Below, in pieces: positions 2,413-18,347 of a DNA stretch of 64,000 nucleotides. The DNA is from a virus. Every line of letters starts with the position of its first letter. The stretch's first letter is position 1. The stretch lies in IMG/VR virus record IMGVR_UViG_3300024239_000017; one strand, written 5' to 3'. The notes under the pieces are model-generated. The model was given only the letters and a program-made list of their open reading frames with translations, was not told the origin of the DNA and made no database searches. A program made the translations under genes and the position numbers.

Positions 2413-3257
2413 TGAAAATTAGAACAGATATATCAGCAAATTATAGAGCTGTATTTTTCAACGGTAAAACAATTAGACAACGTATTGATAATTCAAAACC
2501 TATTACCACACCAAAGTTTGCAGAAATAGAAGATGTAGCTATTAATTCGAAGTGTTTAGCGAATTGTTCTTATTGTTATACTAACGCACTCAAAACAGGC
2601 TCAAATTTCACAGATATTATTGAAAAGGTACACAAGGTATGGGGAGTAAGAGATGAGAACGACAAACCTTTCCAAATAGCTATAGGAGGCGCAGGGGAAC
2701 CAACACTTCATCCGCAATTCAAAGAATTTGTAAAAACAGTAAAAGAAGTAGGTATAATGCCTAATTACACTACTAACGGAATGCATCTATCTGAGGAAAT
2801 TCTACAAGCAACAGAAGAGTATTGTGGCGGTGTAGCTGTAAGTTTTCATCCGCATATTGAAAAAGTTTTTTATAAAGCTGTAGAAACATTATCCACAATC
2901 AACACTAGACTTAATTGTCATGTAATAATTGGAGATGAAAAATCTTTGGTAGATTTACAAAAAATGTATGATAAGTATTCAGACGTATTAGAATACATTG
3001 TAGTTCTTCCTTATCAAGCAGTAGGTAGAGCAAAACAAATAGAAACAGAAGAAGTTTGGAAAAAAACTTTTGAATGGATTAATACAGTTAATTCACAACA
3101 ATTTGCCTTTGGTGCGTTATTTTATCCTTATTTACAAAATAACGAGGTAGAATTAGATATAGATGTTTATGAACCTGAAATCTATTCTGGTTATAGAATA
3201 TTTGATGATAGTTTTATGCATCTAAGACATTCGTCTTATGACTTAAATTTTAAATAA
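2412..3257 (+). CDS. radical SAM enzyme
   Basis: CLANCSYC (CxxxCxxC), GGAGEPTLHP and YTTNG motifs. Confidence 0.9.
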   Translation: MKIRTDISANYRAVFFNGKTIRQRIDNSKPITTPKFAEIEDVAINSKCLANCSYCYTNALKTGSNFTDIIEKVHKVWGVRDENDKPFQIAIGGAGEPTLHPQFKEFVKTVKEVGIMPNYTTNGMHLSEEILQATEEYCGGVAVSFHPHIEKVFYKAVETLSTINTRLNCHVIIGDEKSLVDLQKMYDKYSDVLEYIVVLPYQAVGRAKQIETEEVWKKTFEWINTVNSQQFAFGALFYPYLQNNEVELDIDVYEPEIYSGYRIFDDSFMHLRHSSYDLNFK

Positions 3258-3281
3258 TATTTATTGTATAAATTACAAAAA

Positions 3282-3662
3282 ATGAAAAACCTAGTATTTA
3301 TTTTAAGAATAGATAATACTATTGACTTAATAACAAATTCATCTTCCGAATTGTTTGTGATTAAATCCACAAAACAAAAAGAAGTTATAATAAAAATGTT
3401 AGAAAAAGCACTCGAAGGTATATATGATTATAATATAGAATTGGGTGAAAGAATTTTAAAAGAGAAGGAAGAATGGGAAGTAGATTATGAAAAAACAAAT
3501 TTTCTAAATAATTTTCCAGAAGAAAAACATGAGGAAATAGAAGCATTGTTTTCTCAAACAAATTGGTATTCTTTTGTAATAGATAGAGACCATGAATACA
3601 TACGTGAAATTGAAAACACGTTAATTAAAATAGGATTTGAATTAATAGACACAGATTACTAA
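3282..3662 (+). CDS. hypothetical protein with DLITNSSSELFV motif
   Basis: Paralogue of the next gene; ATG at 3282 preferred over the TTG at 3264. Confidence 0.75.
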   Translation: MKNLVFILRIDNTIDLITNSSSELFVIKSTKQKEVIIKMLEKALEGIYDYNIELGERILKEKEEWEVDYEKTNFLNNFPEEKHEEIEALFSQTNWYSFVIDRDHEYIREIENTLIKIGFELIDTDY

Positions 3663-4186
3663 TGAAAAAAACATTATTCACAATATTTGTAGATAATACA
3701 ATAGATATTATTACAAACAGTAGCTCAGAGTTATTTGTACTAAACGGAGATACTTTAAACTCAGTACAACAAATGGTATCAAGTATTCATCCAGATTATC
3801 TTACTGAATATTATGAGGTAGTCGCTTTAAAAGATGCAGATGATATGATAGTAGAAACTTATCTAGATTGGATAGAAAATTCTTACCATAATTATTGGGA
3901 AGAAACAATAGGTATGTCGGAAAAAGAAAGAATTGAATATGATATTGCAAAACATACCAAGGAAGCAGAAAAATATGGAATGTTACCAGAAGCATTTTTT
4001 GAAAATTGGGATGAGAGAAACGATAAATATTTTTATAGTAGAATTTCTGAAAAAGGATATGACGCAGTAAGACATACTTTAGACCCCAACGGAAGAATAT
4101 TCTTATTATTATCTCTATATGATAATCCAAATTGGGATAAGCAAGAGGCTCTGATGAATATTGGTAGTAGATACCATTTAGGGTAA
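3662..4186 (+). CDS. hypothetical protein with DIITNSSSELFV motif
   Basis: N-terminus shared with 3282..3662. Confidence 0.75.
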   Translation: MKKTLFTIFVDNTIDIITNSSSELFVLNGDTLNSVQQMVSSIHPDYLTEYYEVVALKDADDMIVETYLDWIENSYHNYWEETIGMSEKERIEYDIAKHTKEAEKYGMLPEAFFENWDERNDKYFYSRISEKGYDAVRHTLDPNGRIFLLLSLYDNPNWDKQEALMNIGSRYHLG

Positions 4187-4214
4187 TTAAAAATAACAAT
4201 TAAAAAATATAAAA

Positions 4215-4730
4215 ATGGATTATACATCATTATTTTATTGGCTAGTAGTTGCTGATAATATGAAATCTTTATTTAAAGTAGGTATTACAATATTTACTAT
4301 AATTGCACTGTTTGCAACAATAGTTAATATAGTCTCTAAAGCAAACTATTTAGAGAAAGGAAGTGAGGATTATTTAAAAGACTCTATTGCTGCAAAAAAA
4401 TGGATTTGGTGGTCTTATCCTTTAACTTTTTTATTTTGGTCTTTGTTTATTTTAACACCATCTAAAAGAGATTCATTACTTATTGTAGCTGGCGGAGGTA
4501 CATTAAATTTCTTAACTACTGATTCTACGGCTAAAAAAATTCCACATGAAATGACCAATTTTGTTTTGACGGAATTGAAAAATATGGCTAAAGAAAACGA
4601 AGTAGAATTAGGAATTAACGAACAAAAAGAAAAAGTTATTGAAGAAGCTAAGAAAATGTCTTCTGAAGAACTTATAAATAAGATTAAAACTGATTCCACG
4701 TTTAAGAAAATTCTAGTAGAAGAAAAATAA
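4215..4730 (+). CDS. putative membrane protein
   Basis: Two to three hydrophobic segments. Confidence 0.7.
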   Translation: MDYTSLFYWLVVADNMKSLFKVGITIFTIIALFATIVNIVSKANYLEKGSEDYLKDSIAAKKWIWWSYPLTFLFWSLFILTPSKRDSLLIVAGGGTLNFLTTDSTAKKIPHEMTNFVLTELKNMAKENEVELGINEQKEKVIEEAKKMSSEELINKIKTDSTFKKILVEEK

Positions 4731-7794: not shown

Positions 7795-8568
7795 ATGAAA
7801 AATATATATTTAATACCAACAGATAAAGGAAGTAAATTAACAATAAGAAAATCAGACAGTAAATTATTATTTTCAAAAGATTATTTTAATACAGAATTAG
7901 GAGGAAATCAACATATTTACATTATTTCTGATGAAGAAATTAAAGATGGAGATTGGGTATATTGTAAACATCTTAATTGTATTCTACAATTTAAAAATCC
8001 AAGTAATAGACATTTTTATAAAAAAATCATTTTAACAACAGACCAAGACTTAATTAAAGATGGTGTACAAGCTATTGACGATGAGTTTTTAGAATGGTTT
8101 GTTAAGAATCCTACTTGTGAGTTTATTAATGTTGATGAAAAAACTCCTGATGAGATAGAAGTTGAATTAAATATTCACGGACATGATATAGGGCTAACTG
8201 ACAGGGAATTTGATGAGTGGTTAAATAACGGTGGTCAATTATATAAAATAATCATTCCAAAACCAGAACAAAAACAAATACTTTCAGAAATGATGCAAGA
8301 AGATGAAAAATCAGGATTGTATGACGAAACAATAGAACAAGCTGCTCAAGAATATTCAAAGTATTTAGATGACTTTTCTTATAAAGACTTTTACGCAGGA
8401 GCTTTATACCAACAAAAACAAACGTATTCTAAACAACAAACATTTGAACTAATGAAACAAGCTTTTGAAGCAGGTTTTAAAAAAGCTGATACCGTAGAAG
8501 CAGGTTTAGAACCTAAAGAAACTGAACAAGAAGTTAATTGGATTTTAACAAAATTTAAAAATAAATAA
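7795..8568 (+). CDS. hypothetical modular phage protein
   Basis: KKIILTTDQDLIKDGVQAIDDEFLEWFVKNP block; C-terminal module shared with 11888..12139. Confidence 0.75.
   Translation: MKNIYLIPTDKGSKLTIRKSDSKLLFSKDYFNTELGGNQHIYIISDEEIKDGDWVYCKHLNCILQFKNPSNRHFYKKIILTTDQDLIKDGVQAIDDEFLEWFVKNPTCEFINVDEKTPDEIEVELNIHGHDIGLTDREFDEWLNNGGQLYKIIIPKPEQKQILSEMMQEDEKSGLYDETIEQAAQEYSKYLDDFSYKDFYAGALYQQKQTYSKQQTFELMKQAFEAGFKKADTVEAGLEPKETEQEVNWILTKFKNK
8425..8568 (+). repeat. 144-bp near-identical repeat, copy 1
   Basis: Matches 11996..12139 (YSKQQ...EAGLEPKETEQEVNWIL..KNK). Confidence 0.85.
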
Positions 8569-8569
8569 C

Positions 8570-8815
8570 ATGGAAAAAATAATAACTAATATATGTGCAA
8601 TATATTATGGTATAACCATGTTGATAGGTTTATTGGTATGTATTATAGATAGTATATTTTTATTGACAATTAATAAAAGATTTTTTTATTTTGTAAATAT
8701 AGATTTCTTTCTTATTAATTTGTTACTATGTCCTTCAATAATGTTAATATTGATTTATTTTGGTAAATTAGTAGATTTAATAATTAAATATAAAAATGAC
8801 AGCAGAAGAATTTAA
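8570..8815 (+). CDS. putative membrane protein
   Basis: Two hydrophobic segments. Confidence 0.6.
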   Translation: MEKIITNICAIYYGITMLIGLLVCIIDSIFLLTINKRFFYFVNIDFFLINLLLCPSIMLILIYFGKLVDLIIKYKNDSRRI

Positions 8816-9047
8816 CAAAAAATATGAAAAATATATTGAACCAAGATTTTATGGTTTAGATATATCAAATGAAGACTTTATTAAATGGTTAGATAATAAA
8901 TTTGAAGTATTTATTACAAGACCTAATTTTAAATTCTATCAAATTAAAACAAAATTTGGTATGGGTAGATTTTATTGTGAGGGTCTGAGTCAAGAAGAAG
9001 TATACGAAGTAGAAGAAAAAATATCTAACTTATGCAAGAACAATTAA
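8796..9047 (+). CDS. hypothetical protein (QIKTKFGMGRFY)
   Basis: Packed ORF. Confidence 0.65.
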   Translation: MTAEEFNKKYEKYIEPRFYGLDISNEDFIKWLDNKFEVFITRPNFKFYQIKTKFGMGRFYCEGLSQEEVYEVEEKISNLCKNN

Positions 9048-9436
9048 TTAGTTTTGAAACAGCAAAACTTGCTAAAGAAAAAGGATTTAACATTTTTACA
9101 GATGTTTGTTTTGCTAACACTCCTAATAGTGACGATAAGCAGTATAAAAAAATAAAGTTACATCATAGTCATTCTGTAGGAAGTGTAGATAGTTTTGGTA
9201 ATATATTAACATTAGTTGCTTATGCACCAACGCAATCACTACTTTCTAAATGGTTGAGGGAAAAACATAATATTATCATTTTAGTTTTATATGATGGAAA
9301 AACTTTTTATTATCAAATACAAAGAAAAGAATGGGAAGATTGTATTATACAGTTTGATTTAACACTTAACCAAACTTATGAAGAAGCCTACGAGATTGGA
9401 TTACAAGAAGCATTAAAGCAAATACCTAATATATGA
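9032..9436 (+). CDS. hypothetical protein, 'AKLAKEKGF...APTQSLLSKWLR' family
   Basis: Paralogue of the 6037 and 11476 genes. Confidence 0.7.
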   Translation: MQEQLISFETAKLAKEKGFNIFTDVCFANTPNSDDKQYKKIKLHHSHSVGSVDSFGNILTLVAYAPTQSLLSKWLREKHNIIILVLYDGKTFYYQIQRKEWEDCIIQFDLTLNQTYEEAYEIGLQEALKQIPNI

Positions 9437-9681
9437 AAATAATATTAAAACAATTTTTAATAGTAGACGAGGATAGACAAGAAGAATTTAGAACTAAAAT
9501 AGATTTTACTTCATGTATTAAAAAATATAAACATGGTGATTTATATTTGGAAGTATGTGAGACAATACCTCAGCGCGGATTTTTCTATGAAGGAAACGGT
9601 TATAAAAAAATATTCATTGGTAAACTAAATTCTAAATTAAAAATAGAAGATTATTTGAAAATAAGACAACAAATTAATTAA
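9433..9681 (+). CDS. hypothetical protein
   Basis: ATGA overlap with the previous gene. Confidence 0.6.
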   Translation: MKIILKQFLIVDEDRQEEFRTKIDFTSCIKKYKHGDLYLEVCETIPQRGFFYEGNGYKKIFIGKLNSKLKIEDYLKIRQQIN

Positions 9682-9685
9682 AATT

Positions 9686-9893
9686 AAACACATAACTGAA
9701 GATAAGTAGTAAGTGAGAATTGGTTCATGAAAGTGACCACGCCCCTTTATAGCATTTACCTACATCGAGACGACTTAATCACTGCCAAGAGTGAGTTACT
9801 TATTGTAAGATATTTTGAGTGCTACATGGTCATTGGTAATTACAGTGAATGATAGAAACAAAAATATTCCACTTGGAAATGGATTATGTGTTT
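9686..9893 (+). ncRNA. putative ~208-nt structured RNA
   Basis: Closed by AAACACATAA/TTATGTGTTT. Internal stems include ATAAGTAG/TTACTTAT and a GAAA-capped hairpin, with a possible pseudoknot TAGCATT/AGTGCTA. No ORF. Confidence 0.5.
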
Positions 9894-10356
9894 TTAAAAA
9901 TATTGCAGGTGGCTCCCTTAATAGTCAAGGCTGACCTTTAGCATCTGATAGAGTAACTATCTATACAGGGGGTGAAAGTAAAAGGCTAAACATTGAACCA
10001 TTGTAAATCCGAAAGAAGTGTCAAAAGCTCTTAAGACACATTCACACTCTGGGGTCAGTTTGAATCTGGCGACACAAATTAGGGCTTGTGAATATCAGAT
10101 GAGTTAAGAGAGAGTGTGGTTTACATAAAGATACTAATCTTGAATTGACAGGATGATTAATAGATGAGATTGTATCAAAGTCTCGTGTATAGACCGAGAA
10201 TGTTAATTGGAGTAATCCTAGATGTGTTGTTCCCTTGAGAAAGGAGTGTAGAAGAAGTTAACATGGTTTTAGAATTGCCTGAAATCCACTTACAACACAA
10301 ATGAGTTCTCAATATTTACCCTAATTAGAAATAATGGGTGGAATATTTATTTTATT

Positions 10357-10391
10357 TTGCTTGATACTAATCATTTTTATTTGTATCTTTG
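10357..10391 (+). promoter_or_regulatory. Bacteroidota-type promoter for the HNH gene
   Basis: TTTG ... TATCTTTG (TAnnTTTG) shortly upstream of ATG 10409; spacing slightly longer than in the other copies. Confidence 0.55.
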
Positions 10392-10408
10392 TATAAATTA
10401 TTAATAAT

Positions 10409-10894
10409 ATGTGGAAACAAATAGAAGATTTAGATTATGAAATAAATTCTGAAGGGTTAGTAAGAAGAATTTCAACAAAAAGAATTAAGAAATCTTTTAA
10501 AAGACCAGATGGTTATATAGGTATTCAATTATATTTAACAAAAGATAAAATTAAAAATTATCAATTGCACAGATTAATTGCAAATGCTTTTATTCCAAAT
10601 CCTGAAAATAAACAGTATGTTAATCATAAAGATTCTAATAGAGAAAATAATTTATTAGATAATCTTGAATGGGTAACATTTGAAGAAAATGTAAAACATG
10701 GATATGAATCAGGGTATGCTTCTAATAAAGGTTCTAAAAATGGGTTTTCTGTATTAACAGAGATACAAGTTTTAGAAATAAGAAAAAGAAGAGTAGAAGA
10801 AAAGTTATCATATCAAAAATTAGCAGAAATATATAATGTTTCTTATAGTTGTATTGCTGGAATAATTCAAAGAATTAATTGGAAACATATTTAA
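10409..10894 (+). CDS. HNH homing endonuclease (NUMOD4-HNH with C-terminal HTH)
   Basis: YEINSEG.V, LHRLIANAFIPNPENKQYVNHKDSNRENN...NLEWVT..EN..H, and terminal LAEIYNVS helix-turn-helix. Confidence 0.92.
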   Translation: MWKQIEDLDYEINSEGLVRRISTKRIKKSFKRPDGYIGIQLYLTKDKIKNYQLHRLIANAFIPNPENKQYVNHKDSNRENNLLDNLEWVTFEENVKHGYESGYASNKGSKNGFSVLTEIQVLEIRKRRVEEKLSYQKLAEIYNVSYSCIAGIIQRINWKHI

Positions 10895-11152
10895 GATAAA
10901 CTAAACCCTAATTGAAACTATACAGTAATGTATAGAATGGATATAGTTGTATGAGATATACTATTGTAAACCATTGGGAGTTCTCAGCAAGTAGTTAAGC
11001 AATTGAAATAATAGAATTAGCAATATGCTCTATTAACTACGTGACCCTACTCTTATTTAATATTAAGATTGATGTCCATAATTATTTATGAAAAACTAGA
11101 GTTCTTTTTATTAAATAAGACAAGAGGGTGCTAAAATTTTAAATTAACTATT

Positions 11153-11476
11153 ATGGAAAAGCAAACATTTTTAATAAAATCTTTTATTCCTTCAGATGAA
11201 AATATTGTAAGGTCTGATATTTATAAGCTACAAAAATTAGGTTATAAACATAATATTACTTGGATATTTATTGCTATTACTTATAATGGTGGATACGGAA
11301 CAGGTATGGATATTTTTGGACATAAAACTGAATTAGAAGCGGTTAAATCATTAATTTCTGTAGGTGCGTTTGATAATAGTGAAACAGAACTTTATAAGTT
11401 TGGAGATATGACTTTAGATGAAGCATTAGAAATAAGAAAACAACAAGTAGAATATTTAACTCAAAAATTAAAATAA
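11153..11476 (+). CDS. hypothetical protein
   Basis: Packed ORF. Confidence 0.65.
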   Translation: MEKQTFLIKSFIPSDENIVRSDIYKLQKLGYKHNITWIFIAITYNGGYGTGMDIFGHKTELEAVKSLISVGAFDNSETELYKFGDMTLDEALEIRKQQVEYLTQKLK

Positions 11477-11886
11477 TGAAAAATTTATTTGTTCCTTATA
11501 AACAAGCATTGGAACTTAAAGAATTAGGTTTTGATGAAGAATGTTTAGGAGATTATTTTGAATTTAATGACTTAAATCAAAAATTAAAAGAAGATATACA
11601 ATTATGTATAACTCAAGACGATGTTAATGAATATACTGTAAGTAATTCATTATATCCTTTCTGGTCTTGCTCAGCCCCACTTTGGCAACAAGCGTTTGAT
11701 TGGTTTAGAAATGAATACAATTTATGTAGTTGGATTTACAAAAGTGCTTCAAGACCTTATAAATATCACTATAGTATTTTAAAAGACGCTAGAGTTTACG
11801 TAGAATCAGATAATAATAAATCTACTTATGAAGAAGCACGTTTAGAATGTCTTAAAAATTTAATTGAAATAGTTAAAAATAAATAA
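11476..11886 (+). CDS. hypothetical protein, 'ALELKELGF...APLWQQAFDWFR' family
   Basis: Paralogue of 6037..6501. Confidence 0.75.
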   Translation: MKNLFVPYKQALELKELGFDEECLGDYFEFNDLNQKLKEDIQLCITQDDVNEYTVSNSLYPFWSCSAPLWQQAFDWFRNEYNLCSWIYKSASRPYKYHYSILKDARVYVESDNNKSTYEEARLECLKNLIEIVKNK

Positions 11887-11887
11887 A

Positions 11888-12139
11888 ATGACATCAGAAA
11901 GAATAAAAGAAATACAACAGAAAACAGCTTATCCTGAAAGTAGAAGTGTAAAACAGGCACTTGACCAAGTATGGAACGAATGTTCACAAGAGTCTTATTC
12001 TAAACAACAAGTATTAGAGTTAATGAAACAATCGTTTGAAGCAGGATTTAAAAAAGCTGATATTGTAGAAGCAGGTTTAGAACCTAAAGAAACTGAACAA
12101 GAAGTTAATTGGATTTTACTAAAACATAAAAATAAATAA
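11888..12139 (+). CDS. hypothetical protein
   Basis: C-terminal half duplicated from the 7795 gene. Confidence 0.7.
   Translation: MTSERIKEIQQKTAYPESRSVKQALDQVWNECSQESYSKQQVLELMKQSFEAGFKKADIVEAGLEPKETEQEVNWILLKHKNK
11996..12139 (+). repeat. 144-bp near-identical repeat, copy 2
   Basis: Matches 8425..8568. Confidence 0.85.
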
Positions 12140-12140
12140 A

Positions 12141-12362
12141 ATGTTAGAAAGAATTAATATAATAGAATTAGCATCAAATTTAGCTCACGAAGAGTTAATA
12201 AATGAATATGAAAATCTATTAGAAAATAAAGAAAGGTTATTTCCAAATGGTATTTTTATAGATGAAGATGAGGAAACAACTAGATATTCTGAAGAAGCTC
12301 AGGATATATTTAATAGTTATTATGATAAATATTTAACTATAATTGAAAAATGTAAAGAATAA
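12141..12362 (+). CDS. hypothetical acidic protein
   Basis: Packed ORF. Confidence 0.65.
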   Translation: MLERINIIELASNLAHEELINEYENLLENKERLFPNGIFIDEDEETTRYSEEAQDIFNSYYDKYLTIIEKCKE

Positions 12363-12364
12363 TA

Positions 12365-12397
12365 TTTGCATATGTCAAAAAATTTTTGTATGTTTGC
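12365..12397 (+). promoter_or_regulatory. conserved phage promoter repeat (Bacteroidota -33/-7 consensus)
   Basis: TTTG-catatgtcaaaaaatttttg-TATGTTTG; near-identical to four copies on the - strand. Confidence 0.8.
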
Positions 12398-12416
12398 GAA
12401 ATAAAATCAAAATAAA

Positions 12417-12641
12417 ATGAACACACAATTTTTAATTTATCTATTGGGATTTATTATATCTTATTTTTTAGTAAGAAACTTTTTTAGAAAACTAGCAGAA
12501 AGAAAATATGCGGAAGAATATGGATGGTATAATGTATTTATTAATATAGCTATATCTAGTTTATCTTACATTTCAGTTATGATATTTTTATTTATATTTA
12601 TTATTAGTAAATTTCCTAATAAACCACCGAAATTTTTATAA
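12417..12641 (+). CDS. small membrane protein
   Basis: Two hydrophobic segments. Confidence 0.65.
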   Translation: MNTQFLIYLLGFIISYFLVRNFFRKLAERKYAEEYGWYNVFINIAISSLSYISVMIFLFIFIISKFPNKPPKFL

Positions 12642-12660
12642 ATTTTAAAAATAAATTATT

Positions 12661-12945
12661 ATGAAAGTAGACGAAAATTTATTACTAGATTTACCAAATA
12701 TGGAAATCTTATCAAATGGTCAAACATCCTACTATAAAACAATAAGTATAGAAGGTAATGAGATATATTTAGTTAATATTTTAGACTATGATGATGAGTT
12801 ATATATACCATTAAAGAATTTGAGTAGCCACATAAATAATGTTGGACACGTATTAAATTATAATGAGTATATTTATTCATTGGAAGAAATATTTGAACAC
12901 CGAGAGGTAATAGTTAGTAAAAATAATAAAAAATTTCAAAATTAA
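12661..12945 (+). CDS. hypothetical protein (tandem paralogue 1)
   Basis: Similar to 12951..13226 (LL..P..E.L...NEI.L.NI.D..DE.YI.LKN...G.VLNY). Confidence 0.7.
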   Translation: MKVDENLLLDLPNMEILSNGQTSYYKTISIEGNEIYLVNILDYDDELYIPLKNLSSHINNVGHVLNYNEYIYSLEEIFEHREVIVSKNNKKFQN

Positions 12946-12950
12946 AATAC

Positions 12951-13226
12951 ATGGGAAACTTATCAGTAAATCAAGAACTATTAAATAATATTCCTACATT
13001 AGAAGTATTATATATGGATAGAAAAAAACATTATATTGTAAGAGATATTTACAATAATGAAATAACTTTAGAAAATATAAAAGATAATTTAGACGAATGG
13101 TATATAAATTTGAAAAATATTTCTCCAGATTGTGAAATAGGTAAAGTATTAAATTACGATAAATTTATAAAAGCAGTGAGAAATGTAATGCTAGAACAGG
13201 AGATAAATGAGTATCAACAACACTAA
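12951..13226 (+). CDS. hypothetical protein (tandem paralogue 2)
   Basis: Similar to 12661..12945. Confidence 0.7.
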   Translation: MGNLSVNQELLNNIPTLEVLYMDRKKHYIVRDIYNNEITLENIKDNLDEWYINLKNISPDCEIGKVLNYDKFIKAVRNVMLEQEINEYQQH

Positions 13227-17783: not shown

Positions 17784-18110
17784 ATGGAAGAAAATAAAAA
17801 AGAAACACCTGTAGAATGGTTATTTCAACAATTATGGGATACTCCTAAAGATAAATTTACTTGGTATAATATTTTAAATAAAGCTTTAGAAAAAGAAAAA
17901 GAAGAAATTACAAATGCTTTTATTTGGGGAGAAACTAATGAATACCAAAAAGAACCAAAAATAGCTAAATCTTTACAACCTAAAAGATTTAAAAGAAATT
18001 CTTACAAAACTTATACTAGAATTAAAAATAAGTCTTTTAGAAGATTTTTAAATGCCAATTTTGAAGTAGGTAAAGAAATTTTAAAGAAAAGATATGGTTG
18101 GGAATTTTAA
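17784..18110 (+). CDS. hypothetical protein
   Basis: Packed ORF (ETPVEWL...ALEKEKEEI..AF). Confidence 0.65.
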   Translation: MEENKKETPVEWLFQQLWDTPKDKFTWYNILNKALEKEKEEITNAFIWGETNEYQKEPKIAKSLQPKRFKRNSYKTYTRIKNKSFRRFLNANFEVGKEILKKRYGWEF

Positions 18111-18122
18111 TATTAATATAAT

Positions 18123-18347
18123 ATGTCAAACAAGAAAATTTTAGAATTAATCCTAAATACAGCAGGATTTACTATGGAAAATTATGAACTTATTAAAGAT
18201 GGTTCAATGGTAGGTTATGAATTTGAAGCACATATTAATGGGCAATGTCAATTCCAAGTAGCAACAGATAGTTTTAAAGATGCTATTAGAGAAACTATAG
18301 AAGGTATATATTTTACAGACGACCTTACTTTTGATTATATATTTTAA
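18123..18347 (+). CDS. hypothetical protein
   Basis: Packed ORF. Confidence 0.6.
   Translation: MSNKKILELILNTAGFTMENYELIKDGSMVGYEFEAHINGQCQFQVATDSFKDAIRETIEGIYFTDDLTFDYIF

Follow-up and report, generated by a model that had tools for sequence, protein, structure and literature searches.

The present analysis concerns a 64,000-nt stretch of phage DNA (the window), which is part of the 132-kb IMG/VR virus record IMGVR_UViG_3300024239_000017. Between positions 9984 and 11134, the window encodes a genuine structured RNA with covarying helices. It belongs to a phage-specific family, and the gene of a free-standing HNH homing endonuclease lies in its midst. We see an even chance that a mobile, I-HmuI-like HNH cassette has split a single RNA gene at this place and that RNA modules at the ends of the cassette complete both halves, giving an upstream RNA (RNA-L) and a compact downstream RNA (RNA-R). 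Somewhat more tentatively, it might be supposed that the cassette evolved these modules as RNA "prostheses", i.e. a surrogate 3' hairpin for the left half and a miniature 5' domain for the right half, by which one gene was turned into two working ones.

The interruption of an RNA gene by an HNH module, as proposed in a first-pass annotation made from the letters alone, is supported by the homologues of the RNA. BLAST with the part in front of the HNH gene found a match in the crAss-like Cellulophaga phage phi14:2, and strict motif and pattern scans of IMG/VR and metagenome contigs revealed about 160 distinct copies of the family. In phi14:2, the sequences on both sides of the insert of the window are contiguous (...ACAACACAAATGAGTTCTCAGCAAGTAGTTA...), and the same was found in most of the approximately 160 homologues. 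The gap between AAAUGAG and UUCUCAGC accordingly measures 0 nt in most copies and 389-675 nt in the window and in the homologous loci L021, L047 and L038. At the same gap, an optional module of 35-76 nt is present in L003, L011, L048, L184, L159 and L268, which is made up of two hairpins, the first with the conserved loop UAUCCGURAGGAC and the second variable. L003 represents a second family copy in the window's own genome, located outside of the window (G000 17796-18284), in which the module at the HNH site comprises 35 extra nucleotides (L003 1705-1745, G000 ~18075-18115). The occurrence of optional modules and inserts at one gap indicates that the site is structurally permissive and has been used repeatedly. 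The junction sequence is nearly invariant across the family, as would befit the target of a homing enzyme.

Two copies of the family core were recognized in the region by the covariance model R1. This model was made from 45 uninterrupted minimal type-1 cores, covers the core only and includes neither sequence of the window nor any of the compact type-2 RNAs to which RNA-R belongs. When run unfiltered on positions 8000-13000, it matched on the RNA-L side at 10195-10313 with 64.9 bits (E 4e-14) and on the RNA-R side at 10907-10988 with 21.6 bits (E 7e-4), where P3 was aligned to CUAUAC/GUAUAG and P4 to AUGG/CCAU; the next-best match had an E-value of 0.19. The 64-kb window contains the nonanucleotide GAGTTCTCA, which the first-pass annotation described as a 9-bp duplication, exactly two times, at 10303-10311 and 10978-10986 (chance expectation 0.43). 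It is not a target-site duplication but represents the conserved GAG-UUCUCA pseudoknot motif that is present once per RNA.

The protein encoded between the two core copies is an HNH endonuclease, as annotated before. It matches the Pfam family HNH_3 (PF13392, 1.8e-8) and phrog_59 (3e-43), and its closest solved relative is I-HmuI (PDB 1U3E, E 4e-12 over residues 2-105); a weak NUMOD4 match was obtained at the N-terminus, and the C-terminus is helix-turn-helix-like. Orthologous genes are situated at the same position in L021, L390 and L377, the latter frameshifted, whereas a shorter form of 131-135 amino acids (aa) is found in L047, L345, the L045-type contigs and L304/L350. Its location relative to the RNA varies between the AAAUGAG/UUCUCAGC junction, the end of P3 and the stretch immediately in front of a compact RNA. 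It is reduced to remnants in L322 and L323 and absent beside most of the approximately 160 RNA copies, i.e. it shows presence/absence polymorphism. Comparison of the window with L021, L377 and L390 gave 77-82% identity for the 600 nt that lead up to the downstream RNA and comprise the HNH gene with its putative promoter region, and 72-90% for the mini 5' domain, while the 1-kb flanks on both sides reached 54-57%, a value that is presumed to be background for AT-rich global alignments; the loops of P7 and P8 differ. The left context also varies, being of the long type in the window and L021, minimal in L377, and consisting of A-P2-P3 plus another hairpin in L390 and L345. Judged from these alignments, the pattern is that of a mobile and decaying homing-endonuclease cassette, with its right boundary at the pseudoknot strand. 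The cassette was found at exactly this site in several unrelated phages.

The existence of a large structured RNA, likewise postulated by the first-pass annotation, is backed by covarying homologues in alignments of 51 long-type and 15 type-2 RNAs. For the 51 long-type 5' domains, which include that of the window, a structure with P2, P3a, P3b, the GG-AGUAAU-CC element, P4, P5 and the pseudoknot was derived by hand. Here, 93.8% of the cells are paired (36-44% in slid controls), changes on both sides are seen in 19 of 40 pairs, with covariation in P3 and P5, and the observed values were reached in none of 500 shuffles. P4 and the UUGAGAA/UUCUCA pseudoknot are invariant in this set and were assigned by complementarity; the hairpin CCT-TGAGAA-AGG with a loop complementary to TTCTCA was indeed found where it had been annotated (10233-10244). 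The folding energy of RNA-L is not significant (z -0.93). In the type-2 RNAs, 94.4% of the cells are paired (35-44% in slid controls), and the helices P3', P4' and P5' display both-side changes in 13 of 16 pairs, with 0 of 500 shuffles matching the observed values. Compensatory changes were also detected in P7. The minimum-free-energy fold of RNA-R reproduces the helices, and the whole RNA-R attains a z of -3.27. The pseudoknot UGAGA/UUCUCA is invariant in RNA-L and RNA-R alike, complementarity thus being the evidence for it.

The ends of the family are sharp in the alignments, i.e. (A)GG(C/U)UAAACAUUGA at the 5' end and AGAGGGUGCUAA at the 3' end. RNA-L contains the 5' block as (G)GCUAAACAUUGA (9984-9997) and the junction J2/3 as AAAGAUACUA (10127-10136). 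RNA-R has the 3' domain with P8 (ACCCU..AGGGU) and the terminal GCUAA (11044-11134), and its A' block is the variant CUAAACCCUAAUUGAAA of the 5' block, which is common to 9 of the 15 type-2 RNAs. The homologue alignments place the limits of the conserved RNA at 9984 and 11134 instead of the previously assumed 9902-11131, and the joined flanks would amount to about 476 nt rather than about 550 nt.

If the cassette has split the gene, its point of entry would have been the best-conserved part of one ancestral RNA gene, with ...ACAACACAAAUGAG on the left and UUCUCAGCAAG... on the right. On the 5' side of the cassette, a copy of the pseudoknot strand, the ACCC..GGGUGG hairpin and a U tract would close and terminate RNA-L (9984 to ~10350). 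At its 3' end, a mini 5' domain (A', P3' with the AGUAAU loop, P4', and P5' with the UGAGA loop) would pair with the resident UUCUCA and, together with the resident P7 and P8, form the complete compact RNA-R (10901-11134). The outcome would be two self-sufficient RNAs, for which neither splicing nor an assembly of pieces is needed. During co-infection, the conserved junction of insert-free alleles is presumably nicked or cut by the enzyme, whereupon repair would copy the cassette in. We infer in this scheme the transcription, the ends, the termination and the function of both RNAs as well as the activity and the target of the endonuclease at the locus. Among the fates that the first-pass annotation considered for the interrupted RNA, the formation of two pieces comes closest to the evidence, but two self-sufficient RNAs are indicated and not halves that have to be assembled.

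Several observations on the left half are consistent with this scheme. The annotated hairpin and T-rich tract in front of the HNH gene are present (10312-10346, tract to ~10358) and form a probable short P8-like closing hairpin and intrinsic terminator. RNA-L is devoid of canonical P7 and P8, and its ACCC..GGGUGG hairpin may be homologous to P8. The hairpin also occurs in L021, L377, L317, L047, L323, the L045-type contigs and L022. Its outer stem varies in a compensatory manner (AUAUU/AAUAU, AUAUA/UAUAU, UACU/AGUA, CUACU/AGUAG, ACACU/AGUGU), and the U-rich tail together with such stem changes was observed in 8 distinct alleles. Furthermore, the 5'-side pseudoknot strand of the HNH-bearing alleles is still able to pair with UUGAGAA, as it reads UUCUCA, UUCUUA, UUCUUG or UCUCA. 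L022 has a long version of the hairpin, no HNH gene and a tRNA directly after it.

Regarding the right half, the HNH stop codon is followed in all alleles by the AGUAAU-loop hairpin, its closing helix, the UGAGA-loop hairpin, GAG-UUCUCAGC, P7, P8 and GCUAA. Type-2 RNAs also stand alone without an HNH gene, namely in L291 as an RNA of 168 nt just behind a protein gene and in L479 as one of 118 nt. In L323, from which the HNH gene has been lost, the hairpin is followed by the downstream RNA about 60 nt later, which indicates that the layout with two RNAs is stable. The features of both RNAs and of the endonuclease gene are compiled in Table 1.

Table 1. Positions of the RNA and protein features at the HNH-bearing RNA locus of the window.
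Feature	Position	Strand	Basis or remark
RNA-L 5' domain, long-type family member	9984-10311	+	homologue alignment, covariance model R1
RNA-L A block, GGCTAAACATTGAA	9984-9997	+	
RNA-L P2, TGTAAA with TTTACA	10002-10007 with 10120-10125	+	variable insert enclosed
RNA-L P3a hairpin	10137-10154	+	
RNA-L P3b	10155-10159 with ~10203-10208	+	
RNA-L GG-AGTAAT-CC loop	10209-10218	+	
RNA-L P4, TGTGTTG with CAACACA	10223-10229 with 10293-10299	+	
RNA-L P5 hairpin, loop TTGAGAA	10230-10246	+	
RNA-L pseudoknot strand, TTCTCA	10306-10311	+	
RNA-L 3' hairpin, ATATT-T-ACCC-loop-GGGT-GG-AATAT	10312-10346	+	T-rich tract to ~10358
TAnnTTTG box, TATCTTTG	10384-10391	+	17 nt upstream of HNH ATG; read from sequence
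Free-standing HNH homing endonuclease gene, 161 aa, I-HmuI-like	10409-10894	+	Pfam, PDB and phrog matches
RNA-R compact type-2 5' domain	10901-10988	+	type-2 alignment, R1, fold
RNA-R A', CTAAACCCTAATTGAAA	10901-10917	+	
RNA-R P3', CTATAC-AGTAAT-GTATAG	10918-10935	+	
RNA-R P4', AATGG with CCATT	10936-10940 with 10971-10975	+	
RNA-R P5', ATAGT with ACTAT	10943-10947 with 10960-10964	+	loop TGAGA, 10952-10956
RNA-R pseudoknot strand, TTCTCA	10981-10986	+	preceded by GAG
RNA-R 3' domain, resident part common to uninterrupted alleles	10989-11134	+	family-wide conserved blocks, sharp 3' boundaries
RNA-R P7, GTAGTTAA with TTAACTAC	10991-10998 with 11033-11040	+	
RNA-R P8, ACCCT with AGGGT	11044-11048 with 11125-11129	+	long variable hairpin enclosed
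RNA-R 3' end, GCTAA	11130-11134	+	

The solitary compact RNAs in L291 and L479 can also be read differently. Tandem paralogues might have existed before the HNH gene, which would then be an ordinary free-standing endonuclease in a spacer, and the appearance of a gene plus insert would be a coincidence of shared motifs. Such a history would lead to the same present outcome, two RNAs, and differs only in how it was reached; we rate it as rather unlikely. Tandem copies without an HNH gene do occur, since in L293 a canonical RNA is immediately followed by a compact one, in L182 a copy starts 4 nt after the GCTAA of another copy, and in L263 two cores are 225 nt apart. Moreover, free-standing endonucleases are typically found between conserved genes (PMC2988022). 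However, the mini 5' domain travels with the HNH gene between unrelated flanks, at the identities given above, while the loops of the 3' domain differ. In addition, RNA-L ends in a cassette-linked hairpin instead of P7 and P8, and the sequences on either side of the cassette sum exactly to the uninterrupted junction.

The same contiguity of the flanks in relatives could be taken to mean that the region still gives rise to a single functional RNA, about 476 nt or 1.15 kb long, from which the 675-nt HNH module is spliced or processed out or in which it is tolerated as a giant peripheral loop. The permissive site with its optional hairpins of 35-76 nt would agree with tolerance, and the insert can be delimited to end in G in the window, L021, L047 and L038. 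Nevertheless, we regard this possibility as improbable. No group I or group II intron model matched in the window, L021, L022, L038, L045 or L047 even at E up to 5-10, and only one register is shared by all alleles, in which G instead of U is the last nucleotide of the 5' exon. The ends of the insert are not joined by a conserved helix; they consist of conserved RNA modules. The part of the insert outside the open reading frame (ORF) is only about 190 nt long and comprises a hairpin resembling a terminator, a putative promoter and a copy of the core of the host RNA. Finally, eight L045-type contigs and L022 have the left RNA and the hairpin with no right part within 2 kb. Splicing and simple tolerance, the other two fates considered in the first-pass annotation, are thus disfavoured.

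It might also be assumed that only RNA-R is functional and that the upstream part is a disabled, not yet decayed remnant of the invaded gene. In fact, all that is left of the upstream piece in L390 and L345 is A-P2-P3, behind which an unrelated hairpin stands, and L304/L350 carry the HNH gene and RNA-R with no recognisable left piece. In the window, however, the left part has preserved every conserved block and helix, as reflected in its R1 score, and the pseudoknot strand is kept or compatibly changed in all alleles. The compensatory changes in the left 3' hairpin argue in the same direction, and the L045-type contigs have kept just the left RNA and the HNH gene. A functional RNA-R alone therefore appears to us as doubtful as a single RNA.

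Some findings weigh against the splitting of one gene into two complete RNAs by the cassette. The hairpin at 10312-10346 is weak (-8.4 kcal/mol, z -0.26), and the terminator scan made no call at this place, where the loop is 14 nt long and the stem bulged. As the left piece in L390 and L345 ends right after P3, the left RNA can decay. The compact RNA of L293, which follows a complete canonical RNA without an HNH gene, fits an older tandem as well. The R1 match on RNA-R is modest and partly owed to the shared GAGUUCUCAGC. Lastly, a search with a flanking 107-aa protein gave no relative in IMG/VR and consequently no close empty-site allele. Insert-free alleles are well represented by phi14:2 and most of the homologues, but a closely related phage with an empty site was not found, and the insertion is deduced from distant relatives.

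The splitting of a gene by a free-standing endonuclease, of the HNH or GIY-YIG type, has precedents among T-even phages. T4 SegB is a free-standing homing endonuclease encoded in a tRNA gene cluster (PMC2330249), while MobE splits nrdA in Aeromonas phage Aeh1 and MobA splits gene 39/60 (reviewed in PMC2988022). The HNH gene of the window resembles these cases in that it is free-standing, has putative regulatory signals of its own, lies among or inside conserved phage genes and shows presence/absence polymorphism. SegB sits among RNA genes, and the pieces of the genes split by MobE and MobA stay functional. In contrast to the latter two, the invaded gene is here a structured non-coding RNA, and its halves seem to be completed by RNA modules of the cassette instead of being reassembled. 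To our knowledge, no case has been described in which RNA modules of a cassette complete the halves of a split RNA gene. I-HmuI of Bacillus phage SPO1, which belongs to the same HNH_3/NUMOD-type family, is a nicking HNH endonuclease inside a self-splicing group I intron of a protein gene; unlike there, an intron ribozyme is not detectable at the HNH locus with the Intron_gpI model. Integrative elements that target tRNA or tmRNA (transfer-messenger RNA) genes carry a replacement 3' end, make use of integrases and att sites, and restore one end only. They are comparable as mobile elements that enter a conserved RNA gene and restore it with their own copy of the displaced part. In the present case, an HNH endonuclease is employed, and both sides appear to be restored, which would yield two genes.

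If the cassette has indeed split the gene, the locus would extend the "genes in pieces" produced by phage endonucleases from proteins to RNA for the first time and would illustrate a new way in which a selfish endonuclease can enter an RNA gene that is essential or useful and yet not destroy it. This endonuclease-split architecture is what the locus adds. The HNH-bearing alleles would then also represent a natural dissection of the minimal functional core (~118-120 nt) of a widespread phage RNA class. Retention of the AGUAAU-loop hairpin, the UGAGA/UUCUCA pseudoknot and the ACCC/GGGU helix after the cut suggests that a minimal core measures about 120 nt.

Among 50,697 phage records, phage phi14:2 is the family's sole cultured carrier and represents a tractable system for the new phage RNA. 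Its uninterrupted copy without an HNH insert is located at about 2910-3360 of KC821624, inside a gene-free interval of 685 nt (2905-3589), and has a length of about 450 nt with the predicted ends GGUUAAAC (5') and GGGUGCUAA (3'). The copy lies under gp007-gp009, annotations that were partly removed by RefSeq. Two long intergenic regions of phi14:2 have been reported to be transcribed rightward, early and persistently, and above most protein genes (10.1101/2020.03.07.982082, Drobysheva et al.). The text of this preprint gives no sequence family, structure or coordinates for the long non-coding RNAs and uses the Yutin gene numbers. Because the gap between gp005 and gp006 of GenBank measures only 18 bp, the Yutin numbers were mapped such that the g004-g005 junction would correspond to the RNA and the g005-g006 junction to the tmRNA region, the latter being the second long gene-free interval (~3911-4601), which holds the tmRNA. 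An abundant non-coding transcript already published for phi14:2 is thus probably a member of the RNA family. The tmRNA-like gene is full-length (L001 3515-3986, KC821624 ~4031-4502; RF00023 with 46 bits at a gathering score of 47, E 6e-16). It is situated about 700 nt downstream of the RNA copy, under the small minus-strand ORFs gp013 and gp014 annotated as "hypothetical protein".

The rightward transcripts of phi14:2, which by our mapping include the RNA, also speak against the view that the conserved blocks work at the DNA level, e.g. as a site of replication or recombination, rather than as RNA. This view is very improbable, because the helices are kept via compensatory and G-U changes on one strand only, and because the RNA copies share their orientation with neighbouring RNA genes. 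A tRNA or tmRNA gene was found within 1.5 kb of 47 out of 162 copies, compared to 15% at control positions, and all 47 neighbouring genes are on the same strand as the RNA. Some copies begin 3-4 nt after a tRNA or another copy, which suggests processing from arrays of RNA genes. Our guess is that the family acts as a stable trans-acting RNA that is made and processed together with the phage tRNA/tmRNA arrays.

The members of the family are modular and range from 118 to about 560 nt; minimal ones are without the P3 extension and sometimes without P7. In the structural comparison of the members, full lengths of about 200 to 560 nt were recorded. Only two true copies were detected in 185,579 prokaryote species genomes. 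Both are on small contigs of metagenome-assembled genomes and are probably of phage origin. The carriers appear to be Bacteroidota phages of water and soil. The largest protein of the phage record that includes the window is distantly related to structural proteins of the Cellulophaga phages phi4:1 and phi17:2 and of an epsilon crAss-like phage. The family is common in phages from marine, freshwater and soil samples and is missing from Rfam. None of the Rfam 15 models matched the RNA in the window, the paralogue, phi14:2, 18 short loci, 5 insert-bearing loci or a minimal member, when the whole window was searched at the gathering score and the region at E up to 10; the matches obtained with the family loci concerned only neighbouring tRNA/tmRNA genes and others at chance level.

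The first-pass annotation had compared the RNA with the ROOL/GOLLD type, and the likeness holds insofar as the RNA is large, ornate and phage-encoded and sometimes lies beside tRNA or tmRNA genes. However, no ROOL or GOLLD match was obtained in the Rfam search, and the present RNAs are smaller and modular. ROOL and GOLLD are carried by Lactobacillales or rumen phages. RNase P RNA, a tmRNA piece, a tag-encoding frame and a group II intron were considered as well and dropped, as neither a model match nor a defining motif was found. In four metatranscriptomes compared with phi14:2, conserved blocks of relatives were present in long contigs (up to 8.5 kb, depth 144), in which 3' domains apparently stand in tandem. 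Such contigs are no proof of transcription or of RNA ends and were left out of the evidence. Five metatranscriptomes share only 4-9% of the sampled words.

Concerning the composition of the locus, the 161-aa ORF of the endonuclease is the sole one above 45 aa in the ORF listing of positions 9682-11152. The flanks are ORF-free, as annotated, and GC-rich on the upstream side (0.34-0.405 over 9700-10300 versus 0.2-0.28 in the surroundings), but the about 150 nt 3' of the HNH gene, for which an enrichment had also been claimed, have a GC content of only 0.235-0.28. The TAnnTTTG box in front of the HNH gene, which reads TACATTTG at the same place in L021, is presumably a Bacteroidota-type -7 promoter box as known from Bacteroides promoters and would mark a putative promoter. 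A promoter and terminator scan of the sigma-70 type gave nothing above shuffled controls.

Additional observations were made on the neighbouring RNA genes. No tRNA or tmRNA genes were found in the 64-kb window. Outside of it, the first 23 kb of the same genome (G000:C1 1-23300) contain 11 tRNA genes, of which two show irregular anticodon loops; amid these tRNA genes sits the paralogous RNA copy, and the copy of the window is about 15 kb away from the nearest tRNA. Beside RNA copies, tRNA matches of 101-131 nt were noticed (L021 9085-9215, L217 943-1063, L119 710-814, L022 330-430), and the tRNA genes of these phage RNA arrays may thus contain introns or long insertions. Phage tmRNA genes that encode long tag peptides are located 0.1-1 kb from RNA copies in L390 (1639-1969), L323 (1759-2159) and L115 (6064-6414), and the one of L390 begins 84 nt past the 3' end of the compact RNA.

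Two further sequence elements of the locus deserve mention. The motif ACCCTAATT(A)GAAA is repeated on both sides of the HNH ORF, in the upstream hairpin (10319-10332) and in the A' block (10905-10917), and may be a mark of how the cassette was built or is lost; the long hairpin of L022 begins with the same ACCCTAATTG. Directly 5' of the RNA, about 300 nt (9682-9983) are gene-free and GC-enriched and show weak BLAST matches (80-87% over 35-47 nt) to sequences upstream of the RNA copies in L101, L113, L026 and L048/L279; this segment may be another RNA module or a leader.

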